This document shows, piece after piece, positions 1,849 through 27,359 of a stretch of 32,564 nt of DNA. The position numbers and the translations under genes are program-made. The first letter of the stretch is position 1; each line of letters begins with the position of its first letter. Where the stretch lies: assembly GCA_016839945.1 (NCBI GenBank), contig JAEOTE010000114.1:1-32564 (forward strand), in the 5' to 3' direction. The notes beneath the pieces are model-generated. The model had not been told where the DNA came from. It ran no database searches and saw only the letters and a program-made list of their open reading frames with translations. The DNA comes from Candidatus Heimdallarchaeota archaeon (lineage in GTDB: Archaea > Asgardarchaeota > Heimdallarchaeia > Heimdallarchaeales > Heimdallarchaeaceae).

Positions 1849-2000
1849 AATATTCGCCTTTTCTATTTTTTTAAGCAAAGTACTATAATAGTTTAATAAT
1901 ATTTTAATATATCTACGAAATTCAAAATATGTAAATTGCTGTTTTTTTGTTTAAAATAACCAGCAAGATTTTTATGTATGTCATTCTTATTTAATATTTG

Positions 2001-2405
2001 ATGCAAGAAGATCAACCTCCTCCACAATATTATGCACCCCCTCCATTGGATCCTGAAGAATTAAGGAGAAAAAGAAGAAGAAGGATTATCATATTGGTTA
2101 CTATTATTGTTGGTGGTGTTTTAATTATAGGAGGGATTATTTTTGCGATTTTACTTGCCTTTACAGAAGCTTGCTCGAATTGCGCCAATGCCATTTGTAG
2201 TGCTACTTGTGGTGCAGCATGCGATAATTGTGAACAAAGCTGTTCAAATAGTTGTAATAACTGCTTAACTTGTGAGAATTGTTGTACTAATTGTAGTAGT
2301 TCTTCAATCGATGGTGTTAATGCTCAACCCGCAGAATTTGATGTGAAATCCTTCATTAAATATTTCATGGACTATCTATTTGATTGGTTCAATGATTTAT
2401 TCTGA
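2001..2405 (+). CDS. Small single-pass membrane protein with a Pro-rich N-terminus and a Cys-rich domain
   Basis: PPPQYYAPPP, then RRKRRRR, a 26-aa hydrophobic helix, and 13 Cys in 41 residues. ATG at 2001 has a TATA-like tttttat about 25-30 nt upstream. Confidence 0.8.
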   Translation: MQEDQPPPQYYAPPPLDPEELRRKRRRRIIILVTIIVGGVLIIGGIIFAILLAFTEACSNCANAICSATCGAACDNCEQSCSNSCNNCLTCENCCTNCSSSSIDGVNAQPAEFDVKSFIKYFMDYLFDWFNDLF

Positions 2406-25194: not shown

Positions 25195-25956
25195 CTATCT
25201 GGGAGAAGCTAACAATCTCTTAATTTCATTTACAACTAACGACAAGAACTCTCCAGCTTTTACTCCAAGCTTGATATCTGCTATTGAATCTAAACCTGTT
25301 GGATCTATATTAAGAATTATTAATTTAGCTCCATTTTGTTTAGCTAATTTAGGTAAGTGAGCAGCTGGAAATACGGATAAACTTGATCCAATTACTAGCA
25401 TTAAATCACAATTAGCAGAATGTTCTTTAGAAATACTTACTTCTTTATCTGGCATAGGTTCATTGAAATTAACCACAGATGAAATAATTCTCCCTTGACA
25501 GATTTTACATACTGGTTGACCTAGTGCTTCAGATTCTGATCTAGAACCTCTTCCATGAACCTCTCTATTCCAACCTATTTCATTTCTACCAAATCTCGAA
25601 TCACAATCTAAACACTTCATAAGAGTATAATTTCCATGCAATTCAGCTAACATTTCAGGCTTTATTCCTGATTTTAAATGTAGATTATCAACATTCTGTG
25701 AAATTAAAAATTTCATAATTCCCATGTTTTGAAGTTCAACTAAAGCTAAATGCGCGGAATTCGGTTCAACTTCATCAAAATGCTTTGATTTCTTAGGGGG
25801 AAGACCTTTATCTCTTCTCGTCCAGATGCCATCTTTTCCTCTAAAGTCTGATAAACCTGATTCAGTGCTTATTCCTGCCCCTGTGAAAACCACAAAATAT
25901 TCCGAATCTACGATTTCTTTTGCAATTATATTAATATCATTCTTTGAGTAAGTTAT
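25195..25956 (-). CDS. NAD-dependent protein deacylase, Sir2 family (class IV/SIRT6-like)
   Basis: TGAGISTESG..DFRG, SQNVDNLH, ELHGN, a CxxC...CxxC zinc site and GSSLSVFPA. The frame extends 21 codons upstream of GTG 25893 to ATA 25956. Confidence 0.93.
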   Translation of the reverse strand: MTYSKNDINIIAKEIVDSEYFVVFTGAGISTESGLSDFRGKDGIWTRRDKGLPPKKSKHFDEVEPNSAHLALVELQNMGIMKFLISQNVDNLHLKSGIKPEMLAELHGNYTLMKCLDCDSRFGRNEIGWNREVHGRGSRSESEALGQPVCKICQGRIISSVVNFNEPMPDKEVSISKEHSANCDLMLVIGSSLSVFPAAHLPKLAKQNGAKLIILNIDPTGLDSIADIKLGVKAGEFLSLVVNEIKRLLASPR

Positions 25957-26112
25957 AGTTTATCACCTTTTGATGTTCTTTAAATCACATTTGAAATTTC
26001 AGTCTTTTTATTTATTTAAAATTTTAGGAAATTAAAACTATAGCTCTTAGTGAGGATTATGAAATAGATTTAAATAATTCCAGAATTAACACTTATAACA
26101 TAACTAGATAGT

Positions 26113-26145: not shown

Positions 26146-26364
26146 ATGGAAGATGAAAAAACCTATAAATTAATTGAGCTAGTAGGAAGTTCTCCAAATA
26201 GCTGGGAAGAAGCTGTTCAAGGAATTGTTGCTAAAGCATCTAAATCAATAAGAGATTTAAGAGTGGTAGAAGTACTAAAATTAGATGTAAGGCTTGAAGA
26301 TGGCATGATTAAGGCTTATAGAGCAAGAGTCAAAGTCAGCTTTAAACTAGAAGAAGACGAATAA
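26146..26364 (+). CDS. Dodecin family protein
   Basis: YKLIELVGSSPNSWEEAV...ASKSIRDL and YRARVKVSFKLE, in a 72-aa protein. Confidence 0.93.
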   Translation: MEDEKTYKLIELVGSSPNSWEEAVQGIVAKASKSIRDLRVVEVLKLDVRLEDGMIKAYRARVKVSFKLEEDE

Positions 26365-26456
26365 CCTGATAGTTTCTTTATGTGAGTAAAAACTAGCACA
26401 ATTTCTACTTTATTTTTTTCTCTATAATCTACTCATAAGAACGAAAGCATATTGAA

Positions 26457-27359
26457 TTATTTCCCAAATTTTTTTCTCGCTTCCTTTACAATTTTATCTG
26501 GTTTTTCACTATAAGGACGATAATTTTGACCTAATCTTATATGGTTGTTATTCTTAGAAATAATTTCTTCTAGCTCTTGATTTATTTCATAGCCAAGAAA
26601 ATGACGGAAACTACCTTTAGCTACAGAGCTTGTAGTTCCATTTCCAAGAAATGGATCAAGAATAACATCCCCTGGTTTACTTCCGAAATCAATGCATCTT
26701 TGAACTACTTCTGTGGGTAGTTTAGTAGCATTTTTTTTGGTTCCTCTTTCATAATCTCGATTGATTTCCCAAACATCAAGTGGATAATGTTCAACTTTAT
26801 TGAAGAAATAATTCTTCTCATCCTTTACTGCAAAAAGTAAGTGATAATGACTAGTAACAAACTTCCTTCTTGTAAAAACCCCAAATTGATACTTCCAGAT
26901 TATATGATTAATTAGAGTCAATCTATTAGCTCTCAATGAGTTAAGTATGTCAACTAGATTTGTCCATCCACTAAAAATCCATACACCAGCATCTTCTTTC
27001 ATTATTCGAGGAAGCTCTTTAATCCAGCTTTCTGAAAAATCTGCATAATTATCAATAGCAACATCAGTATAACCTTCAGCTACAAAGTCACTGTCTCTAT
27101 TGTACAGAACTTCCATTTCACTGAAATTTAATCCAAAAGGTGGATCTGCAACAATCATATCTATACTTTCAGGAGGGAGCTTTTTCATACCATTAATACA
27201 ATCAGAATAATATACAACATCAACCTCAAAAGTGAAATCTCTATCATTATATTGTTGTTCTGCCTCTTCCCTAGACCAATCCATTGTTGGCTGGAATTCA
27301 GCAGCTGCTTTATGTGGGACATACCTACCTGGTTTTCTTTGAGATTGAGTAGATTTCAT
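26457..27359 (-). CDS. Site-specific DNA methyltransferase (N4-C/N6-A, beta class), orphan
   Basis: Catalytic DPPF is N-terminal to the SAM-binding LDPFLGNGTT, with IIWKY and GYEIN also present. Confidence 0.92.
   Translation of the reverse strand: MKSTQSQRKPGRYVPHKAAAEFQPTMDWSREEAEQQYNDRDFTFEVDVVYYSDCINGMKKLPPESIDMIVADPPFGLNFSEMEVLYNRDSDFVAEGYTDVAIDNYADFSESWIKELPRIMKEDAGVWIFSGWTNLVDILNSLRANRLTLINHIIWKYQFGVFTRRKFVTSHYHLLFAVKDEKNYFFNKVEHYPLDVWEINRDYERGTKKNATKLPTEVVQRCIDFGSKPGDVILDPFLGNGTTSSVAKGSFRHFLGYEINQELEEIISKNNNHIRLGQNYRPYSEKPDKIVKEARKKFGK

Follow-up and report, generated by a model that had tools for sequence, protein, structure and literature searches.

Does a sirtuin gene in a Heimdallarchaeaceae genome encode an archaeal relative of the nuclear chromatin deacylases SIRT6 and SIRT7, and if so, on what might such an enzyme act? 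The window analyzed here is a stretch of 32,564 nucleotides, contig JAEOTE010000114.1 of the Candidatus Heimdallarchaeota archaeon assembly GCA_016839945.1. A first-pass annotation, made from the window's letters alone, had proposed a SIRT6/SIRT7-like (class IV) sirtuin, and the reading frame it described is present and intact with 253 codons (Table 1).

Gene, motifs and fold

Standard gene calling places the start of the sirtuin by default at a GTG (25893), which removes the first helix and the greater part of the first strand. Automatic callers likewise shorten the protein to 232 aa (non-AUG start, window 25954-25967). The longer 253-aa frame is conserved among relatives, and in most members of the genus GGTGA is followed by ATC or ATT where this gene has ATA. 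Given that arrangement, and since the interval of 5-6 nt is the one at which ATG is most enriched after Shine-Dalgarno-like motifs genome-wide, we infer that the 253-aa protein begins at a non-AUG (ATA) codon. ATA as a start codon showed no genome-wide enrichment. A scan for a promoter of the sirtuin gene, using bacterial models that do not cover archaeal promoters, found nothing above chance.

Table 1. Positions of the sirtuin gene, its motifs and surrounding genes in the window
Feature	Position	Strand	Remarks
Class IV-type (SIRT6/7-like) sirtuin gene, 253 aa	25195..25956	-	putative ATA start (25956), TAG stop (25195)
Shine-Dalgarno-like GGTGA, 6 nt before ATA	25963..25967	-	also in most same-genus relatives, same place
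NAD-binding glycine motif, residues 25-30	25867..25884	-	followed by cofactor loop
18-residue linker (47-64) replacing helical bundle	25765..25818	-	residues 50-59 coil in model
QNVD motif, residues 87-90	25687..25698	-	SIRT6 Q113-D116
Catalytic His107	25636..25638	-	SIRT6 H133; invariant in 108 aligned relatives
Zinc domain C115, C118, C150, C153	25498..25614	-	spacing 2-31-2; long Cys2-Cys3 loop
Substrate-binding loop FNEPM, residues 164-168	25453..25467	-	FGE-type
Membrane protein, 681 aa	20820-22865	-	PGAP2IP/CWH43-type C-terminal nuclease-like domain; adjoins sirtuin in several genus relatives
TPR protein, 723 aa	22913-25084	-	directly downstream, co-oriented; similar genes flank sirtuin in ~10 family relatives
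Dodecin	26146-26367	+	upstream; recurs near sirtuin in genus
N6/N4 DNA methyltransferase	26457-27359	-	upstream; recurs near sirtuin in genus
135-aa ORF	1998-2405	+	basic stretch, one hydrophobic segment, very cysteine-rich repeats; no Pfam match over cut-off

The product carries the elements that define sirtuins (PF02146): Rossmann NAD-binding motifs, QNxD, the catalytic His and a four-Cys zinc site. In the cofactor loop, F38, R39 and W45 correspond to SIRT6 F64, R65 and W71. The catalytic and zinc-binding residues are all invariant among 105 Asgard and bacterial relatives, and Phe occupies the same substrate-loop position in 105/105 prokaryotic rows. The Pfam SIR2 model matches the protein in two pieces, skipping model positions ~27-55, and the CobB-type NCBIfam models all score below cut-off and are also split in two.

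The skipped region is that of the helical bundle. From the GAG motif to QNxD the protein has 61 residues, equal to fish SIRT6, while class III/U-type sirtuins, including the two others of this genome, have 76-83. In an AlphaFold2 model (108 sequences, pLDDT 94.5), a single short helix (44-49) is followed by coil where other sirtuins have the bundle. In Foldseek and VIA-align comparisons, human SIRT6 was the top match (TM 0.84, Z 30.1, 2.0 A, 239 residues), and Sir2Af2 fitted less well (Z 27.8, 4.0 A). The best phmmer match in the PDB was also human SIRT6 (5e-50, 173 bits), aligned with no gaps through the linker, ahead of Sir2Af2 (165 bits), human SIRT7 (94 bits; 401 aa with long terminal extensions) and CobB (66 bits); SIRT3, SIRT4 and SIRT5 were far below SIRT6, at 61-92 bits. 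The bundle-less, SIRT6-like match is thus far beyond chance. Several points of the first-pass annotation were thereby borne out, namely the gap-free alignment to human SIRT6 across the bundle region, the missing bundle with its class IV architecture, and the superposition on the SIRT6 structure, in which the retained bundle that it had named as counter-evidence did not appear. Its count of about 17 linker residues was right as to a short linker and wrong by one in the number, as 18 separate GIWT from the PNSAH helix.

The lack of a helix bundle has been described as a feature of SIRT6 (PMC10942634). Human SIRT6 (class IVa; PDB 3K35, 3PKI, 3ZG6, 8F86) shares with the archaeal protein the linker length and the catalytic residues; outside this core the two differ. 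SIRT6 docks on the nucleosome through its zinc-finger loop (K170/R172/R175/R178), the DNA-contacting R220/R231/R248 and its C-terminal tail (PMC10942634). Because the last two cysteines are only two residues apart here, the 10-residue Cys3-Cys4 insert that holds the acidic-patch loop in SIRT6 is missing. F196, Q207 and S224 stand in place of the three arginines, and FNEPM in place of the WEDSL loop (PMC11476333). Neither the N-terminal extension nor the disordered C-terminal tail of SIRT6 is present, the protein ending with the last Rossmann helix. Judged by these residues, the enzyme is probably not one that docks on nucleosomes in the manner of SIRT6, and it is SIRT6-like in build while lying outside the SIRT6 orthogroup. 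SIRT7 and the fungal and protist class IV proteins have the same bundle-less core, and those fungal and protist proteins that were inspected also have an FGE-type loop and no SIRT6-type Cys3-Cys4 insert.

Descent and distribution of the bundle-less sirtuins

Trees built with FastTree (201 rows), with IQ-TREE (97 rows) and from 57 rows after removal of the linker and Zn-loop columns all agree; they leave out class I, class M and animal SIRT7. In the 57-row tree, where bootstrap values were not fully converged, the bundle-less sirtuins form one clade (100/99), in which 18 eukaryotic rows, many of the eukaryotic rows having been assigned by length and placement, form a separate clade on a long stem (100/100) and the Asgard and bacterial proteins form a prokaryotic group (83/84). 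The prokaryotic clade is therefore sister to the sampled eukaryotic class IV and lies outside it, which upholds the proposed kinship with SIRT6/7.

The conventional zinc-site spacing and FGE-type loop, and the near parity of Sir2Af2 with SIRT6 in the phmmer search, could be read as signs of a class III or U sirtuin that lost the bundle independently and came to resemble SIRT6 by convergence. That reading is highly improbable and largely refuted: the grouping with eukaryotic class IV holds without the indel columns, the linker matches that of SIRT6 in length and is similar in sequence, and forcing the prokaryotic clade together with class III or class U cost 38 and 35 log-likelihood units and was rejected (p-AU 0.033 and 0.034). 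The class III/U placement that the first-pass annotation had named as the outcome contrary to its claim thus did not emerge.

A tree uniting Asgard and eukaryotic proteins without the bacterial ones was not the best but was not rejected either (p-AU 0.45), which leaves Asgard archaea as one candidate donor of eukaryotic class IV. The protein groups neither with fungal "sirtuin-7" proteins nor with a liverwort protein that scores about equally with SIRT7 and SIRT6, the SIRT7-like rows sampled being limited to these. A bacterial-looking protein on a 4.4 Mb contig (P0442) was considered as a second bacterial group and set aside, as it reads as an insect-type SIRT6. The link between Asgard sirtuins and SIRT6/7 is not new but was published in 2022: Heimdall and Loki sirtuins came out, with good support, as the sister group of SIRT7 (Grau-Bove et al., bioRxiv 10.1101/2021.11.30.470311), in line with the earlier guess that such proteins might already figure in phylogenomic surveys.

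Among 400 Asgard genomes, 196 have a match at 1e-40, or ~183 after removal of 13 weak rows (E ~1e-41 to 1e-45), which were left uncounted because in the four of their genomes that were checked (4/4) every sirtuin was full-length and had the bundle. Of 30 other Heimdallarchaeaceae genomes 24 retain the gene, as do 115 of 135 in the largest Asgard family. Its nearest named homologues are labeled as Asgard, with loci 84% identical from Heimdallarchaeota and Thorarchaeota and a 65% match from Heimdallarchaeaceae. Besides this gene, the host genome (3.0 Mb, 88% complete) encodes two bundle-bearing sirtuins.

The first-pass annotation had implied that the form was archaeal, or specific to Asgard lineages. 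A profile of the matches that did not look Asgard retrieved many bundle-less proteins of 230 aa, and the labels, present on only some of these bacterial-like rows, were Thermodesulfobacteriota, Deltaproteobacteria (MAG labels), Desulfobacteraceae and Ca. Adiutricales. The form thus extends beyond archaea and is common under these bacterial labels. The bacterial proteins share linker, motifs and clade with the Heimdallarchaeaceae enzyme, whereas their Cys2-Cys3 loop has 12 residues in 19/20 cases, compared with 31 in nearly all Asgard copies. The best matches in plasmid records were at most 35% identical to it, and all six examined carry the bundle; viral contigs gave a single 33-residue fragment.

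Variants were encountered in this survey. Tandem duplicates of class IV-type sirtuins occur in the largest Asgard family (G216:C18, G181:C79, G225:C29, G174:C323, G193:C9). Some bundle-less sirtuins (P0129, P0130, P0283, P0291; L054) have 469-537 aa, and P0129 and P0130 have 250-290 additional N-terminal residues that look like coiled coil. Another class IV-type protein (P0125, L057:5001-6227, GCA_004196295.1) carries a profilin-like domain at its N-terminus (E 0.002 for Pfam Profilin, under the cut-off); its gene lies within a cluster of ribosomal-protein genes and has another SIR2 gene upstream of it. In a single example (L105:3846-5705), a bacterial-type copy lies divergently beside an ADP-ribosylglycohydrolase gene.

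The genes beside the sirtuin, for TPR, PGAP2IP-like, dodecin, methyltransferase and M20 peptidase proteins, recur across the genus in varying order, and outside the family they were mostly not seen within the 1.5 kb flanks of the sirtuin. A functional operon was considered and rejected on these grounds, no conserved module being demonstrable.

An assayed relative and the chromatin proteins of the host

According to the first-pass annotation, no characterized substrates were known for sirtuins of this kind. A close relative has in fact been tested on histone-tail peptides from Asgard archaea and yeast. Cho et al. (bioRxiv 10.64898/2026.07.02.735847) studied three Loki sirtuins, of which LoSIR2b catalyzed NAD-dependent deacetylation of HLoB.2 tail peptides, yeast H4K16ac and a generic fluorogenic substrate, while LoSIR2a and c had minimal activity on histone-tail peptides, leaving LoSIR2b as the sole clearly active Loki paralogue. 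LoSIR2b (GNAMCCOK_01652, Ca. Lokiarchaeum ossiferum B35), of the Asgard SIR2b clade, is 54% identical to the Heimdallarchaeaceae protein over 239 residues; the locus we assigned to it (L045) agrees with the preprint in its 253 aa, its termini, Q94 and E112. It too has the short linker and the long Zn loop and belongs to the prokaryotic clade, although in the 57-row tree it falls outside the 10-row Asgard subclade that holds the Heimdallarchaeaceae enzyme. The same preprint reports that Loki and Hod SIR2 chimeras restored silencing in yeast, that rescue required fusion to a yeast targeting domain (the rescue pictured being that of SIR2c), and that in the Loki and Hod cells themselves acetylated tails could scarcely be detected; the term class IV is absent from its main text.

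The hosts differ in their histones. Loki has tailed HLoB histones, whereas in the 88%-complete genome studied here neither canonical nor tailed histones were detected with Pfam, with tblastn or with a profile built on histones from Loki, Hod and further Heimdallarchaeia. All histones recovered are α3-truncated, on contigs C59, C53 and C34/C156 (G000); three of the four matches are at the end of a contig, and those on C34 and C156, which overlap, appear to be a single gene. In 3 of 31 Heimdallarchaeaceae genomes a histone exceeded the Pfam cut-off. One of these, the canonical histone of a same-genus genome (L061, G038:C212), differs by one internal residue from that of a genome of another family (G066), which probably reflects bin contamination. 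Loss of nucleosomal histones has been published for related Heimdallarchaeia.

Two of the truncated histones begin with four lysines. The genome also encodes an Alba (L075, G000:C89, ~113369-113557) whose long, acidic N-terminal extension closes with a stretch rich in Lys, Ala and Pro that resembles the Loki HLoB tail. The four-lysine N-termini and the lysine-rich stretch of Alba are candidate substrates. The first-pass annotation had called the protein an archaeal relative of nuclear chromatin deacylases; the kinship stands, and a SIRT6-like role on chromatin in this organism is not supported, the nucleosome-binding determinants being absent and tailed or canonical histones not having been found.

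Likely activity and its alternatives

We consider it likely, with a probability of roughly 0.7, that the Heimdallarchaeaceae protein is a stand-alone Zn-binding NAD+-dependent protein-lysine deacylase with broad substrates, from the clade of Asgard archaea and some anaerobic bacteria that forms the sister group of eukaryotic class IV. By established sirtuin chemistry, an acyl-lysine carbonyl would attack C1' of NAD+, nicotinamide would leave, and His107 would activate the ribose hydroxyl to give free lysine and O-acyl-ADP-ribose. The enzyme would range broadly over accessible lysine-rich segments and may complement the genome's two bundle-bearing sirtuins. Such a broad deacylase is favored by the retention of the gene in genomes where nucleosomal histones were not found, and in bacteria.

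A bias towards chromatin could nevertheless be real, LoSIR2b being the only Loki paralogue clearly active on histone tails. If the enzyme were a dedicated chromatin deacetylase, it would act on the N-termini of its own α3-truncated histones or on the lysine-rich segment of the Alba extension, as the four-lysine starts, the HLoB-like composition of that segment, the erasure of histone-tail acetylation by LoSIR2b in vitro and the silencing restored by the Loki and Hod chimeras would allow. We regard this as unlikely. The yeast rescue was not specific to the clade and depended on the borrowed targeting domain, tail acetylation is scarcely seen in Loki and Hod cells, the SIRT6 acidic-patch and DNA-binding residues are absent from a protein that is charge-neutral (31 K+R and 31 D+E), the clade extends into bacteria, and the neighboring genes are not chromatin-related. 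It is quite unlikely that the enzyme instead acts chiefly on long-chain (fatty) acyl groups, as free SIRT6 does, through a channel opened by the missing bundle, although the removal of long acyl chains is a possible activity. The open architecture is common to both proteins, and SIRT6 F64, W71, P80, F86, V115, L132 and I185, which we take to line its acyl channel, map to F38, W45, P54, F60, V89, L106 and V161. However, SIRT6 F82 is replaced by Lys, at a position that varies across the family, and P62 by Ser, the SIRT6 N-terminal extension is missing, and we know of no lysine fatty-acylation in Asgard archaea. SIRT6 has been reported to be an efficient defatty-acylase (PMC10652111), but LoSIR2b works well on acetyl peptides, which free SIRT6 does not (PMC10942634).

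The protein is another copy within the prokaryotic family closest to SIRT6/7, one linked to them in 2022 and assayed in 2026, and what it adds, modestly, is a contrast case: a lineage in which tailed nucleosomal histones were not found and an enzyme in which all the nucleosome anchors of SIRT6 are absent. It seems improbable that two things hold together, that eukaryotic class IV descended vertically from the Asgard clade and that the Heimdallarchaeaceae enzyme deacylates α3-truncated (face-to-face type) histones or the Alba extension; if both were true, the enzyme would regulate a different chromatin where nucleosomal histones have mostly gone undetected. It would also be a good small enzyme for asking if bundle loss alone confers long-chain deacylation. 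The missing SIRT6 anchors, in a lineage where tailed histones were not found, suggest that the bundle-less fold predates nucleosome docking and was not tied to histone tails.
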